Shown piece by piece: positions 2,606 through 23,723 of a DNA stretch of 64,000 bases (position 1 is the first letter of the stretch; each line of letters opens with the position of its first letter). Location of the stretch: the IMG/VR virus record IMGVR_UViG_3300008108_000013; one strand, 5' to 3'. A program made the position numbers and the translations under genes. Source of the stretch: a virus. Taxonomy: Duplodnaviria > Heunggongvirae > Uroviricota > Caudoviricetes. Under the pieces are notes generated by a model. The model was not told where the DNA came from and ran no database searches. It saw only the letters and a program-made list of their open reading frames with translations.

Positions 2606-2627
2606 TAGCACTTATCACTTTAAATAA

Positions 2628-2676
2628 TCCCTAGTTTTAGTAGTGTTAAATACACACTACTTTCTAGGGATTTTTT
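2628..2676 (+). terminator. rho-independent terminator (two-part hairpin + T6)
   Basis: Outer stem tccctag/ctaggga (7 bp) and inner stem agtagtgt/acactact (8 bp) with a 7-nt loop taaatac, then TTTTTT immediately before ATG 2678. Confidence 0.7.
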
Positions 2677-2677
2677 A

Positions 2678-3400: not shown

Positions 3401-3401
3401 C

Positions 3402-4876: not shown

Positions 4877-5438
4877 AAAATTAGAAGAAAAAGATATTCC
4901 TTCTCTACAGGAATTCTGTGACACTTGTAAAGATCTAGGCTATGTTAATAATCAATCATTTGAAGCTATTAAGTTAGATAAAATGGTAATGCCCTACGGA
5001 CAGTTTTTTGTCGGTGTTGACGATGATAAAATCTTTACCATAGCAGGGGTTCACAGACTGCCTGAGGTAAACGATCGAGCTTGGAGATGTCTTTTTAGAG
5101 GAGCGCAACTTCCTGGGTATACTCCTGCATGGAGCATGGACATATTTAAAAGTGGAATACACTTCAGTCAATTCTTATACCAGCAGATTAAATTTGTACA
5201 AGAACTAGATCCTGATGCAGACTTTTATGTGAGTACCAACGTTCATTCAACTGTAGGTGCTAAGAGCTCTAGAATGAACGATGTTATGATGCCAAGAATA
5301 GCTAAACGTGGTATCTGGACGCTGGCCTTAGAAAACTTCATGCTTTATAATGTTCCGCAGAACCTTTGGAAAATTAACGTTCAGCAGTATATGGAAGCCC
5401 GCGAGCGTTGGCTATCTGGCGAAAGCTGTAGGGATTAA
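4851..5438 (+). CDS. hypothetical protein
   Basis: ORF 4797..5438. The probable start is the MEKLGRQ ATG at 4851, which reduces overlap. No clear motifs; weak GNAT-like resemblance only. Confidence 0.4.
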   Translation: MEKLGRQFRKLEEKDIPSLQEFCDTCKDLGYVNNQSFEAIKLDKMVMPYGQFFVGVDDDKIFTIAGVHRLPEVNDRAWRCLFRGAQLPGYTPAWSMDIFKSGIHFSQFLYQQIKFVQELDPDADFYVSTNVHSTVGAKSSRMNDVMMPRIAKRGIWTLALENFMLYNVPQNLWKINVQQYMEARERWLSGESCRD

Positions 5439-7733: not shown

Positions 7734-8176
7734 TATACACTCTTTAACATATCATAGACATTACTGTTTATTTCGTCATGTAAAACAGTATTATTAAATA
7801 ATTCACTTATATACATTTCAACTCCTCTGGATCTCGATCGTCCCTTAGCACAATAGATGTGTACTATAGATCCTTGTGGAATAGTTTCAATAAACTTTTT
7901 TAATTCTACTGCTTGTTCTTTGGAACAGGCATGAGCATAAATTATTCTTTGGTCATTATTAAACCAAGGTATAACTTTTAATCCTGTTTTATGTACATCA
8001 TCGAAATATAAATTAATTACGTTTCTATGTTCTTTTTTAAAATAAGGAATTCCGTGTATCCAGCCAGTTGCATTTATACAAATAAAATATTCGTTAAGTA
8101 ACTCAACATTACTGTCGTTGATGTCGGACATGGCCTCTTCAAAGGAGGATCGAGAATATCTTCTAACGTCTAGCAT
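7733..8176 (-). CDS. dual-specificity / tyrosine phosphatase-like protein
   Basis: CX5R P-loop VHIYCAKGRSRSRG with an upstream acidic YFDDVH. Confidence 0.55.
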   Translation of the reverse strand: MLDVRRYSRSSFEEAMSDINDSNVELLNEYFICINATGWIHGIPYFKKEHRNVINLYFDDVHKTGLKVIPWFNNDQRIIYAHACSKEQAVELKKFIETIPQGSIVHIYCAKGRSRSRGVEMYISELFNNTVLHDEINSNVYDMLKSV

Positions 8177-8741
8177 AAAATTCTAAAACACGATTTACTT
8201 TTTCTAATTTTTCGCCTGTTAAAAAATGTTTACCAATAAAGAATTTTAAATCTATATTGGACATTACAGGATTCCTTAACCAAAACTCTATAAGATCCTT
8301 TAGTTGATTTTTACTGATTCCCTCTTTACTATTTGATGTATCTTCAACTTCTGTTATAGTTAAGTGTAGCAGATTAGTTATATCTGTCTTTTTTTCTAAG
8401 GGAATCATCTTACAACGATCTTTTAACTCATGTTTAATTTTTGAATAGGGATCATTTATAGCCTGATAAAAATCTCCCGAAATACTTCCAATGACTAGCA
8501 TATTCGGAACCCACCCATATACATCTTCAAGTAGTTTAATTTGATAATCTTCTACACAGGCGCAATTAATAAACAAGTCTGCTGATCGTGCTTCTTTAAC
8601 TATTTCATCATAGTTGATTGTAAAATCGTATCCTGTAGTTCTACTAAGCTGTACAGTTCCTTCGAACATTTCGAATAACCATTTTCCCAAGAAGTGACTA
8701 GGATTTTCAGAAGACCCGCCGCCGGTCATAACTACTTTCAT
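8163..8741 (-). CDS. hypothetical protein with Rossmann-like N-terminus
   Basis: KVVMTGGGSS Gly-rich N-terminus. No further confident motifs. Confidence 0.3.
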   Translation of the reverse strand: MKVVMTGGGSSENPSHFLGKWLFEMFEGTVQLSRTTGYDFTINYDEIVKEARSADLFINCACVEDYQIKLLEDVYGWVPNMLVIGSISGDFYQAINDPYSKIKHELKDRCKMIPLEKKTDITNLLHLTITEVEDTSNSKEGISKNQLKDLIEFWLRNPVMSNIDLKFFIGKHFLTGEKLEKVNRVLEFYARR

Positions 8742-9394
8742 AGATATAATCCTTTAACATCGTCAGTCCATACTTTTCCATATAAATGTATTCTGTTCGA
8801 ACTACCTTTGTTTTCAACACTATGGGGCAAAGTAGTATTAACTAGATATGCCCACCCAGGTTCCATATGATATTCTTCTCCGTCGATAATCCAATTACTT
8901 TCAAGATTAGTATATATAGGTATGTGTACTCTAATCTTGTCAGGACTGTCTTGATGAGTTATTAACTTAGTTCCTGGTACGTGATCAGTGACTAACCATT
9001 TCTTACTTCGTATAGGCATCGATTGTACAATCTCAAGAGCATAGCCATAAAAGCATTTTCTTGGATTTAGTTTATCATTGTCGTTGTCTTGATACTCTGG
9101 TTTAGCCATTCCTTGCTCAAATGGCTTCGGGCCTGGCTCATCATTACTCCAACAAAGGGTATAGTAGCCTGTATCATCTGGCAATATGTGTCCTGTTGTA
9201 CCAGTCATATCAACGATAGGTTCTTGCCAGACGTGATGATTTTCACCGACTAAAAATTTCCAATCTCGATATTTCGTTTCTAAGTCTTTATACCATTGTT
9301 GCAGTTGTACAGCATCTACCTTAAACCAAGGTTTAACTTTAAATCCAAGATCGACAGAATCAAAGTTCTGTATATACCTTTTCATTTTAGTCAT
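8738..9394 (-). CDS. AspH-like 2OG/Fe(II) cupin oxygenase
   Basis: DHVPGTKLITHQD...RVHIPIYTN...LPHSVEN, the same architecture as 2678. Confidence 0.6.
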   Translation of the reverse strand: MTKMKRYIQNFDSVDLGFKVKPWFKVDAVQLQQWYKDLETKYRDWKFLVGENHHVWQEPIVDMTGTTGHILPDDTGYYTLCWSNDEPGPKPFEQGMAKPEYQDNDNDKLNPRKCFYGYALEIVQSMPIRSKKWLVTDHVPGTKLITHQDSPDKIRVHIPIYTNLESNWIIDGEEYHMEPGWAYLVNTTLPHSVENKGSSNRIHLYGKVWTDDVKGLYL

Positions 9395-10115
9395 TAGTTA
9401 AATCAATAACCTTTGTTAATTGCCAAGGAGCAATTCTAGTAATAATATGAGATCTAAATTCTTTAGACTCGTTGGATGTTCCGTGCCAGTCACCGGTGTT
9501 TAAGATATAAATTTTTCCTAGCTTCATATGGTATTCCCTTTCTTTATTTGGGCCAAAATGAAACTTTGCATTTTCATTTGTTTCTACAGGTATATGTAAC
9601 TTTAAAACTTTACTGTCGAGATGCTGTCTAATATACATACCTGGATGATGAGTAGTAATAATCATCTGTCTAAAAGAGTCTTCACCTAAAACAGATATCA
9701 TTTCTTCTAAGTACCCGAATTTCATTTTTGACATTATCTTAGCATCATCAAAAAACGTATTCCTATTAACTTCAGGAAATAACTCAAGATTGCATTGTTG
9801 CGGAGGCGGTAACGGCTCATATCTTTCTGTTGGCCAAGAAAAGGTAATCCCATCGATAGGACCGCAGTAGTAACCACAATATCCTTCTTCAACCATTTGT
9901 TTACTTAATTCTAAGTCTAACTTTTCCGAGTAGGTATTAAAATTAAATCGCATGTGAGAAAACTTCTCATTTACTTGAGAATACCACTCTGATAATTTAC
10001 TAGTATCGAGCGAATAGTTAAGTTCCAGTAAATCCCAATCATTAGACTCAATTAAAAATTCTTCGGTTATTCCGTGATTTTTGGGATCGTAGTCTTTGAT
10101 AATACGTGCTTTCAA
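9387..10115 (-). CDS. AspH-like 2OG/Fe(II) cupin oxygenase
   Basis: THHPGMYIRQHLD...LHIPVETN...GDWHGTSN. Confidence 0.55.
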   Translation of the reverse strand: MKARIIKDYDPKNHGITEEFLIESNDWDLLELNYSLDTSKLSEWYSQVNEKFSHMRFNFNTYSEKLDLELSKQMVEEGYCGYYCGPIDGITFSWPTERYEPLPPPQQCNLELFPEVNRNTFFDDAKIMSKMKFGYLEEMISVLGEDSFRQMIITTHHPGMYIRQHLDSKVLKLHIPVETNENAKFHFGPNKEREYHMKLGKIYILNTGDWHGTSNESKEFRSHIITRIAPWQLTKVIDLTND

Positions 10116-10153
10116 AATATTTCCTCGGTGATGGAATATTTATTAAATAGAAA

Positions 10154-11188
10154 ATGAGGTGCAAATATTTAGATAACCAAGTGTGCATAAGATCAAACGG
10201 ACAATACAGACTGTGTTGTGCGAGTTTAGAATCTGACAATTTAGAAAATGTTAGAACGCATACTATTGAAGAATGGCGTAACAGTCCAACACACGTTATC
10301 ACAAGACAACAGTTAGAAAATAATATTTGGCCGGATGCGTGTCTTAAATGTAAATTGGACGAAGATGCTGGTAGATCAAGCCAACGATTAAAAACTGCCG
10401 AATATGGCCCGGGACTAACACATTTAGATTTAAGATTTAGCAATAGTTGTAATTTATCTTGTAGTATGTGTTGGCCCGGAAGTTCTTCAAAATTAGTCGA
10501 AGAACACAAAGCATTGGGGGAGTTGTCACCTTGGGGAAGTTTAACCTTTGACCTAGTAAATTGGTACGAAGAAGATTTAGTCGGTAATCTAATTAAATCT
10601 GTTCCTGAATTAAAAGAGGTATACCTCACAGGTGGCGAACCTTTTATGGTTAAAGGCATATTAGACTTTTTAAAAAAGTTAGACGAGAACGTTACTGTAA
10701 GATTTAATACTAACGGTACTTTATACAATGATAAAATTTTTAAAGAATTAAAAAGATTTAAACACGTTAACATTAGTTTTTCCGTAGACGGAATTGGCAA
10801 AGTTAATGATTATATACGTTGGGGAAGTACTTGGAAAGAAATCGAATATAATATAAACAAGTATCAGGAACTTAGCGGTTTCTTTAGTGTTAGCTCTGTA
10901 GTACAAATTTTAAATATCCTTTACATTGATGAACTTAAAGAATGGGTTAAATCTCTAAACTTAGAACACTACGAAACATTCTTGTTGAATCCTAAGCATT
11001 ACTGCCTTTATAACGCTGTGGATGATATAAAAAATACAGTTAAGGGTTACGATCATATTAGAAATATAGAAGCAGATGTCTCAGAACAAAATAAATTTGT
11101 TGAATATACTAATATTTTAGATAACAATAGAAATTGTAAGATAAGAGATTACTTACCGGAGGTTGCAAAACTTTATGGTATTAATTAA
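10154..11188 (+). CDS. radical SAM enzyme, family A (N-terminal Cys-rich extension)
   Basis: CIRSNGQYRLCC ... ACLKCKLDE ... SCNLSCSMC (CxxxCxxC) ... TGGEP ... C-terminal NNRNCKIRDYLPEV. Paralog of 15500, 16788, 18942 and 38120. Confidence 0.7.
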   Translation: MRCKYLDNQVCIRSNGQYRLCCASLESDNLENVRTHTIEEWRNSPTHVITRQQLENNIWPDACLKCKLDEDAGRSSQRLKTAEYGPGLTHLDLRFSNSCNLSCSMCWPGSSSKLVEEHKALGELSPWGSLTFDLVNWYEEDLVGNLIKSVPELKEVYLTGGEPFMVKGILDFLKKLDENVTVRFNTNGTLYNDKIFKELKRFKHVNISFSVDGIGKVNDYIRWGSTWKEIEYNINKYQELSGFFSVSSVVQILNILYIDELKEWVKSLNLEHYETFLLNPKHYCLYNAVDDIKNTVKGYDHIRNIEADVSEQNKFVEYTNILDNNRNCKIRDYLPEVAKLYGIN

Positions 11189-11624
11189 AGAAAATAAAGA
11201 AAAACATAGATCAGTATTCTTCGACGGAGAAAATTATGTCAAGGTGTGGGGCAATACTACTCCGCAGTGGATATCAGAACATGTAAGTATTCTTAATGAG
11301 CTAGTTCCTAACTACGTAATCGAGTATGGCGGCAATTGGATAAAATTTAAAACCGTACAAGGAACACCTGCTAGCGAATTTGATCATACTGAGGAATTTA
11401 TTAACAGAGTCTATAATTTTTGTTTAGAACAAATTGAGAAAACATTGCCGTATGCACACGGTGATTGGGTGTTAAGCAACATAATTATAAAAGAAGATTC
11501 TATGTTTATGGTAGACTGGGATAATGTTGGAATTTACCCTAAAGAAGAAATATATAAAAAACTACACAATGATTTAAAAAGTGCCTTTGGAGAAAAATAC
11601 AAGTATGACACCACAGTCGTTTAG
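11163..11624 (+). CDS. mini kinase, APH/choline-kinase-like catalytic segment
   Basis: HGDWVLSNIII (HGDxxxxN catalytic loop) followed by VDWDNVG (DxD/IDWE-like motif). Only 153 aa. Confidence 0.4.
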   Translation: MQNFMVLIKENKEKHRSVFFDGENYVKVWGNTTPQWISEHVSILNELVPNYVIEYGGNWIKFKTVQGTPASEFDHTEEFINRVYNFCLEQIEKTLPYAHGDWVLSNIIIKEDSMFMVDWDNVGIYPKEEIYKKLHNDLKSAFGEKYKYDTTVV

Positions 11625-12822
11625 TTACCCAACATTAGGTAAAGACGGATTAATTTATTGTCCGCCATACGGTTTAGACGAACCTATGGATTTTATGATT
11701 ACAATAAATCCTAAAACTTTTGATATTCAGAAACTCCCTATTAAGGTTAACAACAGTACAGAAAAATGGACATTTGGAATTACTGTAGATGATAAGATCT
11801 ATTGGTTGCCTTACGGCGAAAGCAAAGTGTTAGTAGTCAATACAACAACAAAGAAGGTCGATTACATTGATATTGATTGGCCTGATAATACAAAAAGCAT
11901 CAAAGGCAAATTTGTTCAAGGACACATTTATAAAAATAAAATTTATGCATTACCTTATGGCGAAGACCAACCACTTGACTACGTATTAATAATAGATACA
12001 ACTACTGATAACGCAGTCCTTAAACCCCTACACTTGCCTGATACCGATACTAAAAAATGGCATCAAAGTGTGTTGCGTGGTAATACAATATATGCTGTAC
12101 CTCGAGGTGGCTCTAAACCGTTTAATTTTGCAATCGAATATAATTGTGACGACTGTAGTGTTAAGTTTATAAACTTTAGCAAATACTATGAAGGGTATCA
12201 AGATACTAGCATGAAGTTTACAACTATAGGTATGATCGACGATATAATCTATGCGGCTCCGTATGGTTACCACGATGATTTTGATTTTTTAATTACAAAT
12301 AAAAAAGGTGAATGGAAATCGGAAAGAACTGGTATAACAGGAACAACAAGAAGATACTTCACTAACATCAAGACAAAAAATGAAAAATTATATTTTCCTC
12401 CTGCAGGCCATCACTCATCATGGAGTAAATTTTTAATCATCGACAGCAATGGCTATAAAACTATAGATCTTGGAATAACAAAGGAAACTAAAAAATACTT
12501 CGCAGGAGTTGAAAATAGCCAAGGCAAAGTCTATTATATTCCCCGAGGCGGATGTGTTTGTGATCCAGATGCCGAATTAAAATTAACCGGAGACCTAGCA
12601 GAAGTATTAGTATTTGATACTAAAGACGATAGTTACTATACTGTCGACGTAAGCAGTTGCTTCACTGATAATACAACTATAGAAAAGTACAATGCCTGTT
12701 GTATTGTCGATGACGTAATATTTGCTATGCCGTACGGTGAAAGCAATTCTTTTCAAACTGTATTAGTTTTTGATACAACACAAGATAAAATTATTAAAAC
12801 GATAGATCTAAATGGCATATAA
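11581..12822 (+). CDS. PYG-repeat protein (beta-propeller-like), paralog 1
   Basis: At least 8 repeats of about 45 aa with the core (I/L)Y(x)(x)P(Y/R)G(E/G)xxx and a trailing DTTT/NTTT (e.g. IYWLPYGESKVLVVNTTT, IYALPYGEDQPLDYVLIIDTTT). The start is uncertain; ATG 11605 is an alternative. Confidence 0.5.
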   Translation: MPLEKNTSMTPQSFSYPTLGKDGLIYCPPYGLDEPMDFMITINPKTFDIQKLPIKVNNSTEKWTFGITVDDKIYWLPYGESKVLVVNTTTKKVDYIDIDWPDNTKSIKGKFVQGHIYKNKIYALPYGEDQPLDYVLIIDTTTDNAVLKPLHLPDTDTKKWHQSVLRGNTIYAVPRGGSKPFNFAIEYNCDDCSVKFINFSKYYEGYQDTSMKFTTIGMIDDIIYAAPYGYHDDFDFLITNKKGEWKSERTGITGTTRRYFTNIKTKNEKLYFPPAGHHSSWSKFLIIDSNGYKTIDLGITKETKKYFAGVENSQGKVYYIPRGGCVCDPDAELKLTGDLAEVLVFDTKDDSYYTVDVSSCFTDNTTIEKYNACCIVDDVIFAMPYGESNSFQTVLVFDTTQDKIIKTIDLNGI

Positions 12823-13963
12823 AGCGTTCCAAGATTTTTATTTAGAAGAATCAATTAAACATCTGTTGTTAACAGAGTATAATGGCTGTTTAGTAAGTCC
12901 TCCCTTTGCTACAGAAAAATGCAAAGACTACAATCAAATTATGATCATCGGAAATGATGTGTCGTTTATTGATTTAGATTTGCCGCCTGCAACTAGCAAG
13001 TTTAATGCTTATACTGTGATAGGAGACAGTCTTTGGCTAATACCGTATGGTATCTGGGATAACTTTAATGTCGTGGTACAATTAAAAGATTTTAAACCTA
13101 TATATCATTATATCGATAAACCAGGAAAAGGCCAATTTTATAATGTAGCATCTAATGGCGAAACTGCTTTTAGTTTTCCTTTAGGGTACGAAGATACAAG
13201 TTTTGGGATCTTTATCAGGGATCAACAAGTCCATACAGTTGAATTTGAAAAACAATCTCAAACAAAATTACACATGGGCTGTGTATATGCAAATGGAAAA
13301 TATTGGAGTGCTCCTAGAGGTGACGAACCTGGCTATGTTAATATGATGAGTTTTGATGGCGAACAGTTAAAGTCGTATCCTATCAACTTGCCTAATCCTA
13401 ACATTACTAGAAAATACACCGATATTATTGTTAAAGGAAACACATTGTATGCTATGCCGTTTGGAGAACAACCGGGTTTGATGGAAGTTATAGAGTTTGA
13501 TACTGTTAGTGAAAATTACAAACTTCACAAACTGAATATGCCAGACGTTGCAAAAAAGTTTAACTGTATGGTAGAAGTTGATGAATATATTATCGGACTA
13601 CCTTACGGAACAAAAGGCGATACAAACAGTCGCTGGGGTATATCTTTTAATACTACAACTAACGATTCTGCTTGTTTTGACTTAGGGGAAGATTTTGCCG
13701 ACGGTGGAAAATATCGTTTTAGATGCGGAGTTAATTTTAATAACAATGCTGTATTTTTTCCTGCTGGTACTCCTGACTGTCCAATAGTTAAAGTCAGTAA
13801 AGACTTAACAATTACTACAAAGCACATTGAGGGCGTTATGTTTGGTAGACCTATTGTACATGACAATAAGTTAAAAGTCTTAGGTTATGATATGCGCGAT
13901 GCTACTAACTCGCTTTATGAGTTTGATGAGAGTTTAAATTACTCTAAAACCTTTTTAAGATAA
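12812..13963 (+). CDS. PYG-repeat protein (beta-propeller-like), paralog 2
   Basis: LWLIPYGIWDNF, YWSAPRGDEPGY, LYAMPFGEQPGL and IIGLPYGTKGDT repeats. Confidence 0.5.
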   Translation: MAYKAFQDFYLEESIKHLLLTEYNGCLVSPPFATEKCKDYNQIMIIGNDVSFIDLDLPPATSKFNAYTVIGDSLWLIPYGIWDNFNVVVQLKDFKPIYHYIDKPGKGQFYNVASNGETAFSFPLGYEDTSFGIFIRDQQVHTVEFEKQSQTKLHMGCVYANGKYWSAPRGDEPGYVNMMSFDGEQLKSYPINLPNPNITRKYTDIIVKGNTLYAMPFGEQPGLMEVIEFDTVSENYKLHKLNMPDVAKKFNCMVEVDEYIIGLPYGTKGDTNSRWGISFNTTTNDSACFDLGEDFADGGKYRFRCGVNFNNNAVFFPAGTPDCPIVKVSKDLTITTKHIEGVMFGRPIVHDNKLKVLGYDMRDATNSLYEFDESLNYSKTFLR

Positions 13964-14844
13964 ATGTCGCTAAGACAACTACATTTATTAGTACCGCAGA
14001 CAATCGGACTGTTAGGGAGTATAAAAGAATCTATAGTTCCAATCTTGCCGCCTTGCTGACAATCTGCTCGATAAACATCTCCCCACTGATCAATACTAAC
14101 CATATGCTGTCCTGCCCAGCATTTCCATCCTTTGAAGTTATTAAGACCCTTTAGTATTAAATCGTTACCCGATACTCGCTGTCCGTCTAATGCTATTTCA
14201 CCTCGATGCATCTTGTAGTCATTAACTGATCTAAAATAAGGCCACTGGTTTATGATTCTTCTTTGTTGTTCTGTGTAATCAGCAACTTCATTAGAGATGT
14301 GATTTATATCGCTTTTATCTAAAATAACTTTTGGCCATACAATAACATTAGGTGATCCGTTATACAACTTATCAGCTACTGCTAGTAGCTCATCAAATTT
14401 ATCAGGCACTAGCATTAGGTTGACTGCTACTACTCCTTTAATTGTTTGAGCAACATTAACGCAATGATCAACATCAGCATACTCTGGATGGTAGCTAAGT
14501 ATCATGCCATCAGTATAGTTACTAATAGATTTAAAATATTCAACACTTTGACTGCCGTTAGTTAAAAAGCTAAAAGTATGGCCTTGTTCTTTAACTACTT
14601 TAGCCATGTCAATAAAGTGTTTCCAATAAGTCGGTTCACCGCCGCTGATTCGATAGCAAATTTCCTTGCCCGGCAAATTAAAATTTTCTATAAATCTCTT
14701 AACTGATTCCCAAGTCGGCCAACCTGAACTACCATCATGCAAATTGCTAGGGCAATAACTACACCTATAATTACATTTGTTTGATAGTGTCCAGCTGACT
14801 AGAAACCAATCTTCTTTTTTAGGATCGAGATAAGTTAATTTCAT
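13939..14844 (-). CDS. radical SAM/SPASM-like enzyme, family B
   Basis: SNKCNYRCSYCPS (CxxxCxxC), ISGGEPTYW, HPEYADVDH and a C-terminal Cys cluster (CWAG..CQQGG..CGTNKCSC). Confidence 0.7.
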   Translation of the reverse strand: MKLTYLDPKKEDWFLVSWTLSNKCNYRCSYCPSNLHDGSSGWPTWESVKRFIENFNLPGKEICYRISGGEPTYWKHFIDMAKVVKEQGHTFSFLTNGSQSVEYFKSISNYTDGMILSYHPEYADVDHCVNVAQTIKGVVAVNLMLVPDKFDELLAVADKLYNGSPNVIVWPKVILDKSDINHISNEVADYTEQQRRIINQWPYFRSVNDYKMHRGEIALDGQRVSGNDLILKGLNNFKGWKCWAGQHMVSIDQWGDVYRADCQQGGKIGTIDSFILPNSPIVCGTNKCSCLSDIYLKKVLE

Positions 14845-15503
14845 TAGTACACATTCATTCCGTGTTTAAGGATAATATCATGTGTACGTTGATTTAATTT
14901 AACTGTTAATATCATTGAATAGACACTATCAGTAAAACTAAACACAGAATGTTCTCTTTGGAAATTAGCAAAGTAAAAATAGCCAGGATCAAAGTACAAC
15001 GGTTTACCATCAAGTAACTGTACATAGTTCTCCGGCTTGCACTTTCCAAATGTCATTATAAGGCGTAGGTATTCTGGTGCAGGGCCTGGATAGTCTACGT
15101 GCGGCGGAAAGAACCCGCCAGCATCTAATTTTAAAAAATGTACACGACCGATATCTGGTCTAAAAATATCAACTACTTGCTGTATCTCAGGAAGTGCATG
15201 ATATACTTGTGTTGGCGTTGTGAAGTTATCATCTTTTAAATCAACATCATGATAATTTTGTAAGTAACCAAAACTGTTTAAGTGATAGTTATCCATGACA
15301 TCGCCTGTGTGGCTAGTTACAGGTAACCCCCACCTATTATTGTGCGTATCTTTTTTTAAGTTATAAGGGCACCAGTTATCTTTAAATTGTAAAAGGTCGT
15401 GCTCTAACTTCAATGGTTCGACACGAAGTTTTAATTTAAGGTACAGACCTAAGTTTGTTAGGCTGTGCCATAGCAACCCTCTTTCAATTTCTTCATTAGT
15501 CAT
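14844..15503 (-). CDS. cupin 2OG/Fe(II) oxygenase-like protein (divergent AspH-like)
   Basis: GRVHFLKLDAGGFFPPHVD ... FQREHSVFSF (HxD...H). Confidence 0.45.
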   Translation of the reverse strand: MTNEEIERGLLWHSLTNLGLYLKLKLRVEPLKLEHDLLQFKDNWCPYNLKKDTHNNRWGLPVTSHTGDVMDNYHLNSFGYLQNYHDVDLKDDNFTTPTQVYHALPEIQQVVDIFRPDIGRVHFLKLDAGGFFPPHVDYPGPAPEYLRLIMTFGKCKPENYVQLLDGKPLYFDPGYFYFANFQREHSVFSFTDSVYSMILTVKLNQRTHDIILKHGMNVY

Positions 15504-16795
15504 AATATTTTTAAGTCCGGAAAAATTTTCCTAAAATCTGTATTCCTTGTTTGGTCACATATTTCTAAATACTCAACAGTACTAGGTAATTTAGAAGACC
15601 AGTCTTCGGACATCATGTATCCGATTAATCCTTCCCAACGCTGTTTTCCGTATGTGTTATTTACAAAACCAGGATCTTGGTACTCATTTAAAAAGGCTTC
15701 AATCCTAGATTTTGCCAATTGTTTTAACTCTAACGGCAAAACTTTAACATTTAAATAGCTTGGTAAGTACACCAAATGCAATCCGATAACACCGCCACCA
15801 TATGGATATAGATTAATCTTTTTAAAGTTAGATTGAATCTTCCAGCGAGCTAGATCAGTTATGTATAGGACATTTAGTAACTGAACAGCGCAGGCAACAT
15901 TTATAGTAATATGATCAGGTGTATTGTCTAACTTATTCAAGTTTGTAACAACGTCTGCCCACTTACTAGGATAACGAATGTAGTCATTGTGTTCACCAAG
16001 TGCATCTATACTAAAATTAAACTTAACCTGTTTGAATTGATTCCAAAGATCAAACAACTTGTCAGGTAGCTCTAAACCGTTTGAGTTGTATCTTAATATA
16101 CAGTTCTTAGCATGTCCACTTTCTACCATGAACTCTAATATTTTATAGTGCTCGGGTATTAGTAAAGGTTCACCACCGGCAAAGTACAACTCTTTGATAT
16201 TGTGTGCTTGAGCCTTCATGTTTTCTAAGAAGGCGCTATCCTTATACCAGGTGTAATCAAATGTTCTATCCCAACCTTGATCTTGTTTAAGCTCAACAGT
16301 CTTATACTTAGGATACTGTTGTTTCCAATCTTTAATCCAGCTTGAACTATCGTGTGGACTACACATGACACATTTTAGTTGACATAAGTTACCCAAACGC
16401 AAGTCGAAGTAGGGTATATCAACAGGTAATGTTCCGTCTGAACCTGTCTTAGTAACAATGCTATCAATATCAACACGATCCTTCCATACCATAGTTTCCC
16501 ATTGACGTTTACTTGTGATACCTTTACTTTCTTCTTCAAAACATTTAGTACAACTATTCGGAACTTCACCATTAAGCATTTGTAAACGAGTTGTCTTCAT
16601 GCTTTCGCTATTCCATACTTCGTCTATAGAATGCTTTGCTAAGTTTAAAACCTGTCCTTGGTGTTTAACTAATCCTGCTTCTTTGTCGTCAACTATTCCT
16701 GCACCGCTAGCATTGGCCGTGCAACATACTCTTACATCACCGTTTGGTCTTGTAGCGATATGAATCCAAGGAAGTGGGCAAAAGGTCTTACTCAA
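15500..16795 (-). CDS. radical SAM enzyme, family A
   Basis: MSKTFCPLPWIHIATRPNGDVRVCC, NSCTKCFEEE, GNLCQLKCVMC, AGGEP and C-terminal QTRNTDFRKIFPDL. Confidence 0.75.
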   Translation of the reverse strand: MSKTFCPLPWIHIATRPNGDVRVCCTANASGAGIVDDKEAGLVKHQGQVLNLAKHSIDEVWNSESMKTTRLQMLNGEVPNSCTKCFEEESKGITSKRQWETMVWKDRVDIDSIVTKTGSDGTLPVDIPYFDLRLGNLCQLKCVMCSPHDSSSWIKDWKQQYPKYKTVELKQDQGWDRTFDYTWYKDSAFLENMKAQAHNIKELYFAGGEPLLIPEHYKILEFMVESGHAKNCILRYNSNGLELPDKLFDLWNQFKQVKFNFSIDALGEHNDYIRYPSKWADVVTNLNKLDNTPDHITINVACAVQLLNVLYITDLARWKIQSNFKKINLYPYGGGVIGLHLVYLPSYLNVKVLPLELKQLAKSRIEAFLNEYQDPGFVNNTYGKQRWEGLIGYMMSEDWSSKLPSTVEYLEICDQTRNTDFRKIFPDLKIL

Positions 16796-18104
16796 AAAGC
16801 TCTCCTAGTTCTGGAGTAACATCTAAAATGTTTTGATTGCGGCGCTGGTCGATAACTTTTGTAAATCTAACAAACTCAGGAATACGTTCTTGTGATAGAT
16901 CTTCCTGATCCATGAAGTTTAAAATTGATTTTAGTATAGAAACTGATGCAGACTTTACATTGTCATTTAGATCACTTTCTAAGAATTTGTTAATCCAGCT
17001 ATCGTAATGTAACTTTAATTTATTTCTTATAGACTCTGGATACATCCTAACACTAACACAATATGGTTTGTGTACAGGGTGTGTAGTTATAACAGGTCTT
17101 TTCTCTCTAGAATTAATTTTTTTAAATCCGCTATCAACTAATTTCCACCACATAAATTCCGGCAAGTGAAAAGCATTGTAGGCACTAACAGTGTATGTTA
17201 TATGGACCATAACGTTAGGATTTTGTTGACATATCTCATCTAGCTGTATTAAGTTCTTAAGGGTAGTATTCCATTTAATAGGATATCGTTGATACTCTTG
17301 CATAGACCCCATGCCGTCAACGCTGGCACCTATTCTAACTTGTTTAAACTGTGTCCAAAGTTCTAAAACTTTTTTCGGTAATGATGTGATATTTGTATTA
17401 TATTCTAGGATTATTTTTGAAGCTCGACCAGCGGCAATACACTTTTCTAAGAATAGAGTATGCCTATCTATAATTAAAGGCTCTCCGCCTGCCATGTAAA
17501 CGTGTTCAATATTATTAATTTGTTCTTCTATCTGCTGCCAAAAGAATTCTGACTCGTGCCAGTTGTAATCATCAGTGACAAACCTTCCTTTGTCGTTCCT
17601 TATCAAATGGACCCACCCGTGACTATCTAAGAACCCCTGCTTTTGATCATACGCAACCCAATCCTCATACCACGAGTGGCTGTCTGTTGGCCCGCACATA
17701 CGACAGGCAAGATTACAGGTGTTACCGAATCTTAAATCGTAATAGCGAGTATCTAAGTTTATACTCCCATCATCGTTTGTACTGTTTACTGCATCTTCGT
17801 AAGTAAAGTTCCACTGATCAATTTCGTTAAGACGTCTGCTAGACATACCAGATTCTTCTTCTTGCTGGCATCTTTTACATTCATCACTCCACACACCATT
17901 AATAATATTCTTCCGAATCTCTTTAATCATGATAGCATTTTTAGCATCAACTATAGAATCTTTACCTGCATTAAAGGGTGTTCCATCATCTTTTCTTGCA
18001 GTTCCTTGATTAGGAGTCACGTTGGCTTGGCAACAAACACGCATGTCGCCATTGTTGCGTACTGCTTGATGTATCCAAGGTAAAGGACAGAATGTTTTAG
18101 ACAT
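16788..18104 (-). CDS. radical SAM enzyme, family A (tandem paralog)
   Basis: MSKTFCPLPWIHQAVRNNGDMRVCC, DECKRCQQEE, GNTCNLACRMC, AGGEP and C-terminal QRRNQNILDVTPEL. Confidence 0.75.
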   Translation of the reverse strand: MSKTFCPLPWIHQAVRNNGDMRVCCQANVTPNQGTARKDDGTPFNAGKDSIVDAKNAIMIKEIRKNIINGVWSDECKRCQQEEESGMSSRRLNEIDQWNFTYEDAVNSTNDDGSINLDTRYYDLRFGNTCNLACRMCGPTDSHSWYEDWVAYDQKQGFLDSHGWVHLIRNDKGRFVTDDYNWHESEFFWQQIEEQINNIEHVYMAGGEPLIIDRHTLFLEKCIAAGRASKIILEYNTNITSLPKKVLELWTQFKQVRIGASVDGMGSMQEYQRYPIKWNTTLKNLIQLDEICQQNPNVMVHITYTVSAYNAFHLPEFMWWKLVDSGFKKINSREKRPVITTHPVHKPYCVSVRMYPESIRNKLKLHYDSWINKFLESDLNDNVKSASVSILKSILNFMDQEDLSQERIPEFVRFTKVIDQRRNQNILDVTPELGELFE

Positions 18105-18954
18105 TAAGTAGATACCTCATAAGAGAACTTATTCCCACTAGCTCTCCGCTTCTATCTATAGCTACATGGATAGCCTTAGTCTGAGTTAGATCGAAGTCCC
18201 TGCAGACTTTTTCATTCACGTCAGCATATTTTTTCCAAAAGTAATCTGGTTCAATATTGTTTAAGATATAAAGTGCAACGATTGTGGTCATTCGATTGCA
18301 CATATGAAAGTCATTCATTATGCTAATAGAGTCGGCTTTCTCTTCTTTAGTCCATCTTAAACCAATTCTATTCCAACCCAGTCCTAGACCTTTTGAAAGG
18401 CTGATGCCTAGTGATACAATAGCAGGATGATCAAAATTAAAATCAATTGTGCGGCTACATGTAATCCATGCTCCGTCGACATGCACAGGAATATTTTTTT
18501 TGGCACATTCATCTAAAATTCCATTCATGCCTGTATGAATATCAGCAGTACCTGGAAAAGGTAAAGAAATTATTAAAGGAATTCCGGGGATCAATGTGCC
18601 GGGTATAGATCTTGTAAAAGAATAACCTAATCTTTCGTGATACTTATAATCACCTTCAATTGTCTGTACGTACCCGGACATATATAAATTATCAATAAAC
18701 TGTGTACATCCGTTAATTATATCGACTCTGTTAAAGGTTTCAAGTCCTCTTATTTGATTCAAGGTCGACGCAGTTAACCAACTAATCATTTTATCTTTAA
18801 AAATATTATGTACGTTATCCGTGTGATCAGGCACCCAACCGTTATAACCAGTTAATGTTGAATTAAACAATGACTCAAGATGACTATCGCAAAAAGGTTT
18901 TAATCTACCTTTTTGTAAATAATCTTGAGAATATTCAGGTGCTATTCTTTCCAT
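18097..18954 (-). CDS. PLP-dependent aminotransferase-like protein (short)
   Basis: SLSKGLGLGWNRIG matches the SxSK...GxRxG PLP-lysine region of fold-type I aminotransferases. The protein is only 285 aa. Confidence 0.4.
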   Translation of the reverse strand: MERIAPEYSQDYLQKGRLKPFCDSHLESLFNSTLTGYNGWVPDHTDNVHNIFKDKMISWLTASTLNQIRGLETFNRVDIINGCTQFIDNLYMSGYVQTIEGDYKYHERLGYSFTRSIPGTLIPGIPLIISLPFPGTADIHTGMNGILDECAKKNIPVHVDGAWITCSRTIDFNFDHPAIVSLGISLSKGLGLGWNRIGLRWTKEEKADSISIMNDFHMCNRMTTIVALYILNNIEPDYFWKKYADVNEKVCRDFDLTQTKAIHVAIDRSGELVGISSLMRYLLNV

Positions 18955-20219
18955 TCTAACATCATCTCATAACACTTTGGAAATACTTCTTTCCAATTAA
19001 TATTTTGTAAACTAGACATCTTAAAGAAAAAGTCTTTAAGATCCTTTCGTCCTTGGATTATTTCATCAACGGTTATAGGCATTTTATTTGCGTACAATTC
19101 CCATTGGTTTAATTTAGAAAGTATCTCCGTATCTGTTGTTTTAGATCGTAGATAGACGAACATCCTATTTCTTTGATCCTCAGACAGTAATCCTATATTT
19201 AAATATTTAGGATTCATAACCGGATGACTTACTACACCAGCAAATGTATCTTTATTAATCTTTTTAAAATTCTTATTCTTTAACCAAAGCATCCAATCGA
19301 CTATGTTTTCTAAATTTAAAATCGAAACCGTAGTACTGGTAAAAACAGTAATATTAGCTGGCGTACTGTCAAGTATATCTAAATTCTTTTCTACAACTTT
19401 CCAAGGTGTTGGATATCGTATCGCATGGTTAACATCTGCTGTTCCGTCAACACTGGCACACAACTTAACTATTTTAAAATTTGAAAATAAATTAAAAATA
19501 TAATCGGGTAACACAGTTACATTAATACTATACTCTAATTCAATATCATTGGCAAATCCATTACTAATAAGTGCCTCTAATAAAGCAACGTGTTCTTTAA
19601 CTAGGAATGGTTCGCCGCCACCGAATTTAATCTTTTTAACAAACATCGAATGTTTAGCAACTAACTCGTAATACTCTTTTTGGTTGGCCCAATCAAATAC
19701 CTTTGTGTCGTCGATTGAATATGACACATCATCGATAGAAAAGATACGCTTACCTGTTACCTTTTCTTGTATCTTATACCATTGATTACTTTCTCCAGGA
19801 TAACACATAACACATTGTACGTTACACTTATTACCTAATCGAAGATCTAGGGATAAGATACGGTATTCAGATACTGTGCCGTCAGGGGCAGTGATTGCTC
19901 TAGCGTCTTCTTTGGTAAAATCATACATAGTCGATTCCCATTGATTCCGACTACGTTTACCTGCTTCGCTTTCGATACGACATCGTCTACATTGTTCGGG
20001 CCATTCATTGTTTAAAAATTTAGCACGAACTTCTTTCAACGTTTCGCAATTACTGATATCAAATTTTAAATCGTCAATAGTTAATATCTTTTCGTTCTGC
20101 GTTAACACAGTTTTCTTATTGCCGCCGCTTTGGCTGTGAGAGCATAGTCGCAGATGTCCATTACTTTTAACAGCAATATGACTCCACGGCAACGGACACC
20201 ATTTATCTAAATTGCTCAT
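18942..20219 (-). CDS. radical SAM enzyme, family A
   Basis: MSNLDKWCPLPWSHIAVKSNGHLRLCS, EQCRRCRIES, GNKCNVQCVMC and GGGEP. ATG 20219 is preferred because it matches paralogs; the track start is 20237. Confidence 0.7.
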   Translation of the reverse strand: MSNLDKWCPLPWSHIAVKSNGHLRLCSHSQSGGNKKTVLTQNEKILTIDDLKFDISNCETLKEVRAKFLNNEWPEQCRRCRIESEAGKRSRNQWESTMYDFTKEDARAITAPDGTVSEYRILSLDLRLGNKCNVQCVMCYPGESNQWYKIQEKVTGKRIFSIDDVSYSIDDTKVFDWANQKEYYELVAKHSMFVKKIKFGGGEPFLVKEHVALLEALISNGFANDIELEYSINVTVLPDYIFNLFSNFKIVKLCASVDGTADVNHAIRYPTPWKVVEKNLDILDSTPANITVFTSTTVSILNLENIVDWMLWLKNKNFKKINKDTFAGVVSHPVMNPKYLNIGLLSEDQRNRMFVYLRSKTTDTEILSKLNQWELYANKMPITVDEIIQGRKDLKDFFFKMSSLQNINWKEVFPKCYEMMLEWKE

Positions 20220-21168
20220 TAAACCTATCCACTTCACCGCACTGGCGACTACATTCTTTTAACGGACTATTCTCCCATGTACTTGCAATACTGTTAAAGT
20301 ATCCGCTATCAAAAATTTCTGCTAAACTGTTTTCATGTAAGTTAGGATACTTGCCTATCTTATCCATATAATCTATTCTGTTGGGATGGTTAGGATTAAA
20401 CCATTCGTTGTCTAGCCAACAACAAGGAACAACATTTCCTGTAGCACTAACATACAGACTCTTTTCATTGGCTACTTTACAGGTAATCGCTTTAGATTGT
20501 TCAGACACAACAATTTTCTTGCTTTTATCTGTTGGATACAGTATATGTAATGTACGACCTTCTTTATCTAATACTTGTAACTTGTCTTCTTTGAAACGTG
20601 CTGTGTTCTTTGCTACAAAATGTTTGAACCCCATGCGCTGGCTCAATTCTTTACAAATCTCTACTTGGTGTTTATTGTGTTCGAAAATTAACATATCCCA
20701 AGTTGCTGTTCCACCTTCTTTGATAAACAACTTAGCATTATCAAGAATCTTAACCCAGTCTGTGCCAATGCGGTATAAGGGGTGTGTATCAATAAGCCCG
20801 TCAATACCAAATCGAACATGTACATCTAACTTAGCAAGTCCCTTCCAAAAATTTTCACTCTTAGCGGAACCGTTAGTGTTCATGCTTAATTGTATGTCTG
20901 GATTTGCTGATCGCAAGTATTCAAAAATCTTTAATGTATCCTTAGCAATAATGGGGTCGCCTAAGTTACCACACATATATAACCTGTCTAACTGCTTTAT
21001 AATACCGTCGGGGAACCACTCTTTAAACTGTTCAAGTGTAATCTCGTCAATTGTAATAAAAGGATTTTCAATGCCGCCTTGAATGTTACGGGCACACATA
21101 GGACAACTAGCCTGACAACGACTGGTAACTTCTAAGTGAACTGTCCTAATATCCGTTAGTTTATACAT
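20203..21168 (-). CDS. radical SAM/SPASM-like enzyme (distinct type)
   Basis: TSRCQASCPMC (CxxxCxxC) at the N-terminus. C-terminal Cys-rich region TCKV...PCCWLDNEW...CSRQCGE. Confidence 0.7.
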   Translation of the reverse strand: MYKLTDIRTVHLEVTSRCQASCPMCARNIQGGIENPFITIDEITLEQFKEWFPDGIIKQLDRLYMCGNLGDPIIAKDTLKIFEYLRSANPDIQLSMNTNGSAKSENFWKGLAKLDVHVRFGIDGLIDTHPLYRIGTDWVKILDNAKLFIKEGGTATWDMLIFEHNKHQVEICKELSQRMGFKHFVAKNTARFKEDKLQVLDKEGRTLHILYPTDKSKKIVVSEQSKAITCKVANEKSLYVSATGNVVPCCWLDNEWFNPNHPNRIDYMDKIGKYPNLHENSLAEIFDSGYFNSIASTWENSPLKECSRQCGEVDRFNEQFR

Positions 21169-22168
21169 TCAACTTCCTTTTAGGAATCTTAACCTCTGTC
21201 GGGCAATTACAATATAACTGCTGACAGCGTGTAGTTGTGATTACATCAGGAGTAAACTTTGACTCAAACTCAGGGTCGTATATAGAAAATCTATTAACAC
21301 CACCAAACATATTTCTTGCACCACAGCTACCGCTAATAACACCATCTCGCTCTATAGCAAATCTATCTACGCCCAAGTTACAATCCCAGCCTGTAAAGTA
21401 ATGCCAACCATTTTGAATTACTTTAAAAGTATCAGCCGGTATCTCTTCTCCAGAATCCATAACTACACGCATGTCGGATTTAGAATCCTGGATCCTTCCG
21501 AGATCTCTTTGTTTCTGTATCCACTCTACAGGAGGAATTTTTTTCATCTTCTGTTCAGTATAGGCAATCTGTTCCGGAGTAAATCCTTTTATTTCACCGT
21601 CAGTAAATATAGGTTTAGTCTTTAACACCCACGGTGTAGGATGTGCCTTCATTTTCTCGGCTATCTCAACACAGCGATCCCAGTGTAAAGGATCCATTAA
21701 TACCTGTGCATTGATTAGCACATCAGTATTATAAAACACCCAATCCATTACTTCAATGATATGGTCGACATCCGCAAATTCATTATGTACACTAATACTA
21801 ATATCATCAAAGTACTTTGCATACTCCATCCAGAATCTCATAGTTCTTGATGCGTTAGTAACTATACTAATTTTACAGTCATGATTTTTACTAAAATATT
21901 CTGCAAATTCACCTAGCTCTGGCCATAGACTCGGCTCACCGCCGGTCAAGTTTATACGCACATTTTGTTTGCCAAGATGTTCTTTGTATATCTTTAACAT
22001 ATGGCTGAGATTCTTAGTGACCATATTAAAGTCTGTAGGGAATCGATACTTGCCATCATTACAGCCGTCGTAGCAATAATGACACTTATAGTTACACAAC
22101 GTTCCTATGATGTATTCGATTCTCAAGACACCGTCAAAGTCTTTATTTAAGATTGCTATCGGCTTCAT
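21161..22168 (-). CDS. radical SAM/SPASM-like enzyme, family B
   Basis: GTLCNYKCHYC, LTGGEPSLW, HNEFADVDH and a C-terminal CNLG..SGSCGARN..RCQQLYCNCP. Confidence 0.7.
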   Translation of the reverse strand: MKPIAILNKDFDGVLRIEYIIGTLCNYKCHYCYDGCNDGKYRFPTDFNMVTKNLSHMLKIYKEHLGKQNVRINLTGGEPSLWPELGEFAEYFSKNHDCKISIVTNASRTMRFWMEYAKYFDDISISVHNEFADVDHIIEVMDWVFYNTDVLINAQVLMDPLHWDRCVEIAEKMKAHPTPWVLKTKPIFTDGEIKGFTPEQIAYTEQKMKKIPPVEWIQKQRDLGRIQDSKSDMRVVMDSGEEIPADTFKVIQNGWHYFTGWDCNLGVDRFAIERDGVISGSCGARNMFGGVNRFSIYDPEFESKFTPDVITTTRCQQLYCNCPTEVKIPKRKLNV

Positions 22169-22758
22169 TTCTTACCTATTATCATAAAACGTTTATATAA
22201 CGGTAGATCCAATTCGCCGGAATATAAAATTTGTTCTAGTCCTGATTGCTGTTTAAATTCTTCTAAATCTCGAGCAATACGAACATGTTCCGGAATACTG
22301 TAATTGTTACTCTGTAACACAATTAAACTATCGTGTGGAAGCCCCGATAGCCACAGATCATATTCGTCTTGTGTAATGTGTTCGCAACTAGTGTTAATAA
22401 CAACATCTGCATCACTTCTAATATTACACATATCGGCTGTGATTGCTCTAAACTTACCTTTTTCTAATTCGATCTGATTCATATTATGAGCGATTTCTTC
22501 GCACTCAGGATCGATATCAATACTACGAATATAGTGACAAGGCACATTACTTTGAAATAACATACTCGCTAGTGTTCCAACCCAACCGCCGTGAATATCC
22601 ACACTAACGCTAGAATGTACTAATTCGTCTAAATTATCTATTAACCATTCTTTACTTAATATTTGGCCGCGCCAAAACGCATCCATAGTACGAATAGGAT
22701 CTTTACTGTTTCGTATGGCTCTCATCCAATGATGTAAATGTTCTGTGTCTATTTGCAT
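22165..22758 (-). CDS. hypothetical protein, possibly class I SAM-dependent methyltransferase
   Basis: VDIHGGWVGT (motif I-like Gly-rich loop) and DADVVINTS. Weak. Confidence 0.3.
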   Translation of the reverse strand: MQIDTEHLHHWMRAIRNSKDPIRTMDAFWRGQILSKEWLIDNLDELVHSSVSVDIHGGWVGTLASMLFQSNVPCHYIRSIDIDPECEEIAHNMNQIELEKGKFRAITADMCNIRSDADVVINTSCEHITQDEYDLWLSGLPHDSLIVLQSNNYSIPEHVRIARDLEEFKQQSGLEQILYSGELDLPLYKRFMIIGKK

Positions 22759-23723
22759 TTTGGTATTTTACTATCCGCTGAACTTACGCAACTAGGTGTA
22801 ATACAGCTTTGAGGTTGTTTAAATAATTCAAAGTTATCTAGTGTTCCTAAAGATTGGTCGTGACAACTGTAACTTCTCTTGACCTCAGTTCCCCTAATTA
22901 TAACACTCTGGTATCCTGAATTGCAAGTCCAATTATTAAATTTATTAAAACCAAAAGAATTAAATCTTTCAGCTTGATCGAATAGGTATTCTGTCCCAGA
23001 GTTATCATAAAGAGCAATCTGATAAACATCTTCTCCATTTGACGACTGAGGAAATCCTTCTCTCATTAAATGTAGCATTTCCTCAGTATAACCATCAACA
23101 ATCGCAGTAGCATCTAAAGTACTCTGCGGTTTTAAGGTAACACTTATTCCTCTTTTATGTAGGCGTTCCATGCGTTCATATAATGTATAAAATTGATCTG
23201 GAACCATAACTTGATTAACTGTAAGCAAAACATTTTCATACATTAATTGTAAACACTTGTCTCCGAATTCTTGTTCTTTGGCAAACTCTGCATGGTAGCT
23301 GGCAGTGATACTTCTGCGCTGTAGTGTAGATGTAACACTGGCCCAGTTCTTCCACCAATTAGTTCCAGGACTCAAATTTGTAGTCATGTGAATACTTTGG
23401 TAAGGACTTTCTAAATCTTTTTCTACATGTTTTGTTAGATCTAAAAGGTGTTTATAAGCAGTAGGTTCTCCGCCACTAAAACTCCAATGAAATTCTGTAA
23501 ATCCGTTACGTCTTGCTTGGCGCTTTATCTCATCAACTGTTTGTTTGTAAACATCTAACGGTTGGAAGTCAAGTCGATCACTTCTTGCATAGGGCCAACA
23601 GTACGAACAGTTATAATTACAAAAACGACCTAGTATCCAGCTAACCGAAAACAGAGGTCGATTTAACATTGTTCTTTGTCCAAAACGGACTATTTTTTCG
23701 AATGGAATGGTAGAAAATAGCAT
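22749..23723 (-). CDS. radical SAM/SPASM-like enzyme, family B
   Basis: GRFCNYNCSYCWP, FSGGEPTAY and a C-terminal Cys cluster (CNSG..SCHD..SCITPSC..KCK). Confidence 0.7.
   Translation of the reverse strand: MLFSTIPFEKIVRFGQRTMLNRPLFSVSWILGRFCNYNCSYCWPYARSDRLDFQPLDVYKQTVDEIKRQARRNGFTEFHWSFSGGEPTAYKHLLDLTKHVEKDLESPYQSIHMTTNLSPGTNWWKNWASVTSTLQRRSITASYHAEFAKEQEFGDKCLQLMYENVLLTVNQVMVPDQFYTLYERMERLHKRGISVTLKPQSTLDATAIVDGYTEEMLHLMREGFPQSSNGEDVYQIALYDNSGTEYLFDQAERFNSFGFNKFNNWTCNSGYQSVIIRGTEVKRSYSCHDQSLGTLDNFELFKQPQSCITPSCVSSADSKIPKCK

Follow-up and report, generated by a model that had tools for sequence, protein, structure and literature searches.

SPASM domains contain seven or eight cysteines, and the twitch domain, as reportedly defined by Grell et al. 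in 2015, corresponds to the opening half of the SPASM motif (CX9-15GX4C, a gap and then CX2C) and holds one cluster. In BtrN, SkfB, BlsE and MoaA the twitch module follows the radical S-adenosylmethionine (SAM) core, and reviews describe SPASM and twitch domains as C-terminal extensions (PMC9012708, PMC13459092). Here we describe five paralogous genes in which the same module very probably lies in front of the core. They were found on a stretch of viral DNA of 64,000 nucleotides (IMG/VR record IMGVR_UViG_3300008108_000013, Caudoviricetes), which is called the window below. All five are members of the NCBIfam family NF033640 (N_Twi_rSAM, 'twitch domain-containing radical SAM protein'), which is catalogued and biochemically uncharacterised; their architecture is not new.

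The differences from the characterised systems concern the position of the domain, the number of clusters and the parts surrounding them. BtrN, the butirosin 2-deoxy-scyllo-inosamine dehydrogenase and archetypal twitch radical SAM enzyme, carries the twitch domain at its C-terminus, whereas the phage copies carry it at their N-terminus; beyond the motifs no sequence similarity between BtrN and the phage copies was detectable, and the latter have an additional helical C-terminal domain of about 100 residues. In anSME, SkfB, CteB and PqqE, seven or eight cysteines and two auxiliary clusters come after the core, in contrast to the four invariant cysteines that precede it in the phage copies, which are also devoid of an RRE. 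The three-cysteine cluster of MoaA binds the substrate directly, which would be less likely for the predicted, fully cysteine-ligated cluster of the phage copies. LipA and MiaB/RimO likewise have an auxiliary [4Fe-4S] cluster encoded upstream of the radical SAM motif; N-terminal cluster domains of the UPF0004 or LipA type were not found in the copies. The archaeal tetraether lipid synthase Tes (GDGT-MAS, PDB codes 7TOL/7TOM) has three clusters and a rubredoxin-like iron with Cys3His and Cys3Met ligation; it was absent from the structural matches of the isolated N-terminal domain, and its model NF045702 gave 25 bits with the phage copies against a cutoff of 450. From the rest of NF033640 the phage proteins are structurally no different, and they share the family name with the homologs in Bdellovibrio, Bacteriovorax and Methylomagnum, to which PGAP assigns it.

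The N-terminal cysteine domain of the five paralogs

All five open reading frames (ORFs) listed in an earlier note on this DNA were present at the coordinates given there. Copy 1 (15500..16795, minus strand, 431 residues) starts with TTG preceded by AGGAG, and its N-terminus MSKTFCPLPW is the same as that of copy 2 (16788..18104, minus strand, 438 residues). Copy 3 (18942..20237, minus strand) comprises 431 residues if translated from GTG at 20237 or 425 residues from ATG at 20219; the GTG-start version was missing from the protein collection searched. Copy 4 (10154..11188, plus strand) is the shortest with 344 residues and has the twitch motif CKYLDNQVCIRSNGQYRLCC...CLKC. Copy 5 (38120..39499, plus strand, 459 residues), with CLAKW...NGHTHSC...CHYC, is the most divergent. 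Pairwise BLASTP comparison of all five revealed identities of 21-35% with E-values between 1e-6 and 1e-87, and the five-copy alignment spans the whole length of the proteins with 33 invariant columns. A search of the window with a profile built from the five copies returned no sixth full-length member.

The claim of the earlier note that the five copies share one architecture is borne out by this homology and by the full-length match of every copy to a single curated model. With NF033640, whose curated cutoff is 170 bits, copies 1 to 5 scored 429.9, 373.3, 281.2, 243.0 and 334.7 bits (243-430 bits overall); the matches start at protein residue 2-21 and extend from about position 1-5 of the 398-position profile to position 395-398. 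The features of the radical SAM superfamily were all found, namely CX3CX2C, the GGE motif for SAM binding and a partial TIM-barrel core.

The N-terminal domain occupies roughly the first 90-105 residues and is followed by CX3CX2C at residue 99-145. Its cysteine pattern, present in every copy, combines CX12-13GX4C with a CX2C that follows after about 40-57 residues, and in copy 1 it consists of C6, C24, C82 and C85, with CQLKCVMC at position 138 and GGEP at position 207. The Pfam SPASM model PF13186 matched residues 6-85 of copy 1 with 35.4 bits, above its gathering score of 21.5; the scores of copies 3 and 4 fell slightly short of it (19.5 and 20.6 bits), and copies 2 and 5 gave no match. In the precomputed domain annotations of copy 1 homologs, SPASM PF13186 stands ahead of Radical_SAM PF04055 in all 120 proteins listed. 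Conservation was assessed in two sets, one of 159 domains from representatives mutually no more than 50% identical and one of 114 domains from proteins homologous to a Bdellovibrio member. In both, C24, C82, C85 and the three radical SAM cysteines were 100% conserved and C6 97-99%, while a fifth cysteine (C25) was conserved to 80-97% and the P and W of C-x-x-P-W to about 90-97%.

In an AlphaFold2 model of copy 1 (pLDDT 85, pTM 0.86), C6 and C24 flank a beta-hairpin, and C82 and C85 lie on a helix formed by residues 80-90. A hairpin between the first two cysteines followed by a helix is the arrangement of solved SPASM/twitch domains, and the top structural matches of the isolated N-terminal domain were exclusively SPASM/twitch enzymes. 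The domain departs from the described ones in that it precedes the radical SAM core. Sequence comparisons at the level of the domain were less informative: the N-terminal profile retrieved nothing meaningful from the PDB sequences, and when hhalign was used to compare the domain with the C-terminal SPASM of the neighbouring gene (20203-21168), the alignment was confined to the NGxxxxCC segment and lacked significance. Taken together, the N-terminal cysteine motif is very probably an auxiliary [4Fe-4S] domain of the SPASM/twitch type placed ahead of the core, as judged by homology. The proposal of the earlier note that an auxiliary iron-sulfur cluster occupies an unusual position is thereby supported through the SPASM match of copy 1, the SPASM/twitch cysteine spacing and the C-terminal placement described in the reviews.

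The individual motifs on which that proposal was built fared unequally. GGEP is invariant in the five copies, and the CxxC followed by acidic residues likewise occurs in each. The N-terminal (F/W)CPLPW holds for copies 1-3, whereas copy 4 has CKYLD and copy 5 CLAKW at this place, and the CC doublet is confined to copies 1, 2 and 4. The radical SAM motif, written there as CN(L/V)xCxMC, is an approximation (CQLKCVMC in copy 1, CNFKCSYC in copy 5), and in the C-terminal tail described as RRNxxFxxxFPEL-like one Asn and one Pro are the only invariant residues. Instead of about five cysteines upstream of the core we counted four to six per copy, and only C6, C24, C82 and C85 (copy 1 numbering) are invariant.

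The combination of domains, which the earlier note did not recognise from characterised families, corresponds exactly to NF033640, by which PGAP already names bacterial proteins. The family is large: a profile search yielded at least 6,303 clusters (50% identity) at E <= 1e-30 and 11,298 at E <= 1e-10. At the same time, the N-terminal motif aligned to no characterised family of defined chemistry, since a PDB search with the whole-protein profile returned generic radical SAM cores and no solved structure of a family member, and no paper on an N-terminal twitch/SPASM domain or on NF033640 was found in the literature. Among viral proteins, the structural neighbours (BFVD) were 'Radical_SAM domain containing' proteins of uncultured phages and KVP40-type proteins. 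Among 50,697 phage records, Megablast found no counterpart of the array; tblastn retrieved relatives at 22-28% identity only. Other annotations can be set aside. The anSME model TIGR03942 had a match in copy 4 alone, which reached at best 25.7 bits at a cutoff of 349.45, and none of the five copies has the C-terminal cysteine-rich domain of an anaerobic sulfatase maturase ('AslB', the JGI label); the viperin models NF038283/TIGR04278 scored 18-28 bits for the family copies against a cutoff of 180. Annotation as N-terminal-twitch radical SAM proteins (NF033640) is therefore appropriate, rather than 'AslB' or 'MoaA/NifB/PqqE'.

Paralog lineages, arrays and a conserved partner gene

Three of the genes had been described as adjacent. 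This applies to copies 1 and 2, which adjoin with an overlap of 8 nucleotides, whereas copies 2 and 3 are separated by a gene for a conserved protein of 285 residues (18097..18954, minus strand), directly downstream of which copy 2 is located. The 285-residue protein has no Pfam or PHROG match; it contains an SLSK motif and gave a weak NCBIfam match to a transaminase (E = 0.0035), which together hint that it is perhaps a pyridoxal phosphate (PLP) enzyme. It has at least 1,257 'hypothetical' homologs, which likewise lack Pfam domains. Its surroundings were examined on three contigs, the phage contigs L032 and L033 and the bacterial contig L031 (8036-8983), and on each of them it adjoins an N-terminal-twitch radical SAM gene or lies one gene away from it.

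Each copy has relatives elsewhere to which it is closer than to its neighbours. More than 100 metagenomic proteins are 70-86% identical to copy 1, which also shares 47% identity with a gene on L031, a bacterial contig of 1.85 Mb. Orthologs of copy 2 at 48-52% identity occur in IMG/VR contigs, and another L031 gene, preceded by the homolog of the 285-residue protein as in the window, is 41% identical to it. Copy 3 has an ortholog at 64% identity in L033, and copy 4 a 43%-identical ortholog in a syntenic position of L002. For copy 5, the relatives are the fourth member of an array of four genes on a Bdellovibrionales chromosome (L012; 44% identity) and gp349 of Ralstonia phage RsoM2USA (41% identity). 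Because the identities of copies 1, 2 and 5 to bacterial or other phage genes (41-47%) exceed the 21-35% observed among the paralogs themselves, the window paralogs represent old, distinct and separately conserved lineages. A recent tandem duplication was ruled out on the same grounds, and the term tandem array used in the earlier note is right in the loose sense of clustered genes only.

The composition of the array varies among related phages, with one to three family copies at this position. In the window the order is copy 3, the 285-residue protein gene, copy 2 and copy 1; in L033 it is copy 3, the 285-residue protein gene and copy 1, and L002 has the copy 1 ortholog only, so that copy 2 is absent from this position in both. 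Comparable arrangements were found elsewhere. Four family members stand in a row on the Bdellovibrionales chromosome (L012 6592-12338), six radical SAM genes lie within 10 kb on L031 (1-10350), and arrays of four to six N-terminal-twitch radical SAM genes were present on contigs from Bdellovibrionota, Oligoflexia and other bacteria (L012, L031, L007, L011). Runs of two to five members occur on bacterial and metagenome-assembled contigs, three to six members are present on individual IMG/VR contigs, and in some polypeptides, e.g. P0121 (856 residues) and P0124 (1,203 residues), two or three copies are fused. Arrays of divergent paralogs are thus typical of the family, in phages as well as in Bdellovibrionota-like bacteria. 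The bacterial loci were collected by a motif-restricted scan, biased towards proteins with [KN]TFCPLPW or H[LIQ]A[TV]R[PN]NGD, and the enrichment in predatory bacteria is accordingly an apparent one, of which the scan gives no unbiased estimate.

Two leads from the bacterial loci were followed and abandoned. A link to menaquinone was suggested by one Oligoflexia contig in which the gene follows a men operon, a single case seen nowhere else. Two small ORFs of L031 (69 and 45 residues), considered as precursors of ribosomally synthesised and post-translationally modified peptides, have neither a repeat nor a Cys/Gly-rich core and no phage equivalent.

The jumbo-phage island

The phage from which the window derives is an uncultured marine jumbo phage and a distant relative of PA5oct. 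PHROG matches in it include a head maturation protease, a DNA ligase, an endonuclease and a tail fibre, and one conserved protein shares 42% identity with proteins of the Pseudomonas phage PA5oct group. Proteins identical to those of the window were found on a contig of 215 kb and close relatives on contigs of 283-379 kb. Copies 1-4 are located in a variable island of biosynthetic type and about 22 kb (1481..23723, with no strand applicable), recognised by Pfam/NCBIfam scans and by synteny with the related marine jumbo-phage contigs L001-L004, L032 and L033, among which its gene content varies. The GC content of the island is 33-37%, compared with 38-44% over 24-64 kb of the window.

Nine radical SAM genes were counted in the window, including copy 5, which lies outside the island. 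Four of them do not belong to NF033640. Those at 13939-14844 and 21161-22168, both on the minus strand, have the prokaryotic viperin model NF038283 as their best match (44.8 and 70.7 bits against a cutoff of 180); that at 20203-21168 has a normal C-terminal SPASM domain, and the remaining one lies at 22749-23723. The island further encodes a flavoenzyme of the Trp-halogenase family (5374-6561) and four cupins of the PF05118 Asp/Asn-hydroxylase type (2678-3400, 6558-7733, 8738-9394 and 9387-10115). Another ORF (14844-15503), without a Pfam match, appears cupin-like from an HxD...H pattern recognised by eye.

A protein of 197 residues (22165-22758, minus strand), also without a Pfam match, resembles methyltransferases in a class-I motif identified by eye (VDIHGGWVG...IDID). 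It is 33% identical to gp347 of Ralstonia phage RsoM2USA (L029 7904-8587), which lies two genes from the copy 5-like gp349. The sequences suggest a conserved module of radical SAM and methyltransferase-like proteins in the window and RsoM2USA.

A small kinase-like ORF is located at 11163-11624. Two adjacent genes on the plus strand encode paralogous repeat proteins of 413 and 383 residues (11581-12822 and 12812-13963) with about seven hydrophobic-Y-x-x-P-x-G repeats; they have no match in Pfam, NCBIfam or PHROGs, are conserved inside the island of L002 and L033 with 44-54% identity, and possibly form beta-propellers. An AMP-binding fragment is encoded by an ORF of 215 residues (4229-4876, plus strand) that matches profile positions 168-346 only and overlaps, in a different frame, an ORF of 213 residues (4797-5438, plus strand). 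The pair may represent a split or frameshifted adenylating enzyme, or a sequencing error.

Outside the island, a multi-pass membrane protein of 229 residues is encoded about 1 kb upstream of copy 5 (36373-37062, plus strand); its 68%-identical homolog in L032 has a Pfam match to Bax1-I (Bax inhibitor-1/YccA-like), which is unusual for a phage gene. A single ORF of 4,087 residues (47906-60169, plus strand) lies downstream of a tail-fibre-like gene (41496-42950).

Predicted reaction, substrate class and alternatives

We consider the paralogs to be NF033640 enzymes with two clusters, one of them in the N-terminal twitch domain, that act at different steps on a sugar, glycan, lipid-linked or metabolite substrate, and we assign this reading as a whole a probability of roughly 0.6. 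In each copy the catalytic [4Fe-4S] cluster would be bound via CX3CX2C and SAM via GGEP, and a second, fully cysteine-ligated [4Fe-4S] cluster would be held by the twitch domain through a cysteine, a beta-hairpin, a further cysteine and a helix with CxxC, as predicted from sequence and models. As four cysteine ligands would leave no open iron site, the auxiliary cluster would most likely serve, by analogy, as an electron conduit or acceptor. Such relay or acceptance of electrons by auxiliary clusters has been proposed for BtrN, anSME and SuiB (PMC9012708). The 5'-deoxyadenosyl radical would take a hydrogen from the substrate, and the resulting substrate radical would be oxidised or otherwise resolved via the auxiliary cluster, a mechanism that could support dehydrogenation, epimerisation, decarboxylation or cross-linking. 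Because the lineages are old and separately conserved, the paralogs probably differ from one another in the step that they catalyse or in the position at which they act. The paralogs would function together with the 285-residue partner, the four other radical SAM proteins, the cupin hydroxylases, the flavin halogenase and the methyltransferase-like protein.

The substrate class is the weakest step of this proposal. We weakly favour a sugar, glycan, lipid-linked envelope molecule or secondary metabolite over a ribosomal peptide, because several genomic contexts of relatives, the scope of PF05118 and a parallel among cyanophages point to the tailoring of glycans or lipid-linked molecules. In the cultured Vibrio phage K566, four radical SAM genes resembling the family are interleaved with two GT8 glycosyltransferase genes (47 and 33 bits; gathering score 24.3), and PagP is encoded nearby. 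A member on a Methylomagnum plasmid is located among three glycosyltransferases, a polyprenyl synthetase, a UbiA prenyltransferase, AsnB and an ABC transporter, and two members on a Limisphaerales chromosome adjoin genes for an acyl carrier protein and a GT1 glycosyltransferase. One protein of the family also contains a fused FkbM methyltransferase domain, and genes for KDO-8-P synthase and CMP-KDO synthetase lie no more than 10 kb from the island in related phages. PF05118 comprises not only Asp/Asn hydroxylases but also the lipid A and Kdo hydroxylases LpxO and KdoO. The cyanophage parallel is a cluster described by Iyer et al. 2021, in which, as in the island, a phage-borne amino-acid halogenase is accompanied by cupin/2-oxoglutarate hydroxylases, and for which decoration of capsular polysaccharide or secondary-metabolite synthesis was predicted (PMC7824862). 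In that cluster carbamoyltransferases and a HemK-like methylase are central and radical SAM proteins are unmentioned, whereas the window island is dominated by radical SAM genes (PMC7824862).

Several observations weigh against our proposal. Pfam and NCBIfam scans revealed no recognisable glycosyltransferase in the window island, the chromosomal contexts in Bdellovibrionota are without consistent partner genes, and the glycan-linked examples are distant relatives with 22-34% identity. The Asp/Asn beta-hydroxylases, the enzyme of Trp-halogenase type and the TPR fusions would be just as compatible with peptides or proteins as substrates. Furthermore, only one of the five copies passes the Pfam threshold for SPASM, and cofactor content and reaction type are read solely from homology and AlphaFold2 models.

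The alternative that survives best, although we regard it as unlikely, is that the paralogs are peptide or protein maturases which, together with the Asp/Asn beta-hydroxylases and the halogenase, introduce cross-links, epimerisations or oxidations into a peptide or into a phage or host protein. Most characterised SPASM/twitch enzymes act in this manner, and SkfB, CteB, ChlB, EpeE, SuiB, PapB and anSME are among the structural and sequence neighbours of the copies. The hydroxylase-type cupins and the Trp_halogenase-family enzyme of the island would suit such a role, as would the TPR repeats fused to some family members and the two conserved repeat-rich proteins at 11581-13963. However, the twitch motif starts the protein, and a Pfam scan detected no RRE or PqqD-like leader-binding domain in any copy, an absence that leaves protein substrates possible. 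The genes of the island abut or overlap, with no intergenic space or suitable short ORF for a precursor, and the several independent contexts with glycosyltransferase or polyprenyl genes come without a peptide precursor. The lipid A and Kdo hydroxylases within PF05118 further diminish the value of the cupins as an argument for peptides.

It is improbable that the radical SAM proteins act on nucleotides or phage DNA bases and that the island is a DNA-modification module of the jumbo phage, for which QueE, viperin-like enzymes and the radical SAM isomerases of thymidine-hypermodifying phages would be the models. The jumbo-phage replicon would be in keeping with such a module, MoaA, viperin, BlsE and QueE are among the relatives of the core, and the sub-threshold best matches of two neighbouring non-family genes are to prokaryotic viperin. 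The kinase-like ORF, the weakly PLP-like protein and the flavoenzyme of the island also recall the enzyme classes which, according to Lee et al. 2018, are reportedly used in thymidine hypermodification. Yet family members are arrayed on bacterial chromosomes and, on a plasmid, stand in polysaccharide/lipid loci; the scans of the island brought up neither a DNA glycosylase nor a DNA transferase nor a partner from nucleotide metabolism, and all viperin and QueE scores lie far under the family cutoffs. Finally, that the N-terminal cysteines form a zinc ribbon or an iron-sulfur cluster unrelated to SPASM/twitch, in an unrecognised architecture, is very hard to maintain: a Pfam SPASM match below the gathering score or absent in four of five copies, an N-terminal profile that retrieves no PDB sequence and a non-significant hhalign comparison with the SPASM domain of the neighbouring gene would agree with it, but the curated N-terminal-twitch model covers all five copies from residue 2-21 on, their cysteine spacing and hairpin-helix topology fit SPASM/twitch, and the isolated domain finds exclusively such enzymes as its top structural matches.

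Starting from the proposed two-cluster enzymes acting on a glycan, lipid-linked or metabolite substrate, one can speculate further, although we put the chance of the following at clearly less than even. The NF033640 family may carry out chemistry not described for SPASM/twitch enzymes, and the island may encode an entire pathway, capable of horizontal transfer and also present in predatory Bdellovibrionota, that builds a heavily oxidised and possibly halogenated envelope glycoconjugate or metabolite during infection. The parts of such a pathway would be the five paralogs, the 285-residue partner, the four other radical SAM proteins, the cupin hydroxylases and the flavin halogenase.

The value of these results lies in the size of an unstudied, putatively two-cluster family, in paralog arrays common to jumbo phages and predatory bacteria, and in a phage island rich in radical SAM genes, and not in a new motif. 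That abundant marine jumbo phages carry up to nine such genes within 64 kb, beside hydroxylases and a halogenase, is a striking commitment, given that radical chemistry of this kind is sensitive to oxygen and the ocean in which these viruses live is oxic. A very large and strictly conserved family of predicted two-cluster radical SAM enzymes has no reaction assigned, and cultured phages with members, such as Vibrio phage K566 and Ralstonia phage RsoM2USA, as well as cultured Bdellovibrio and Bacteriovorax strains, are tractable systems in which to study it. A single solved reaction would annotate thousands of genes and could also reveal what such phages do to the envelope or the metabolome of their hosts.

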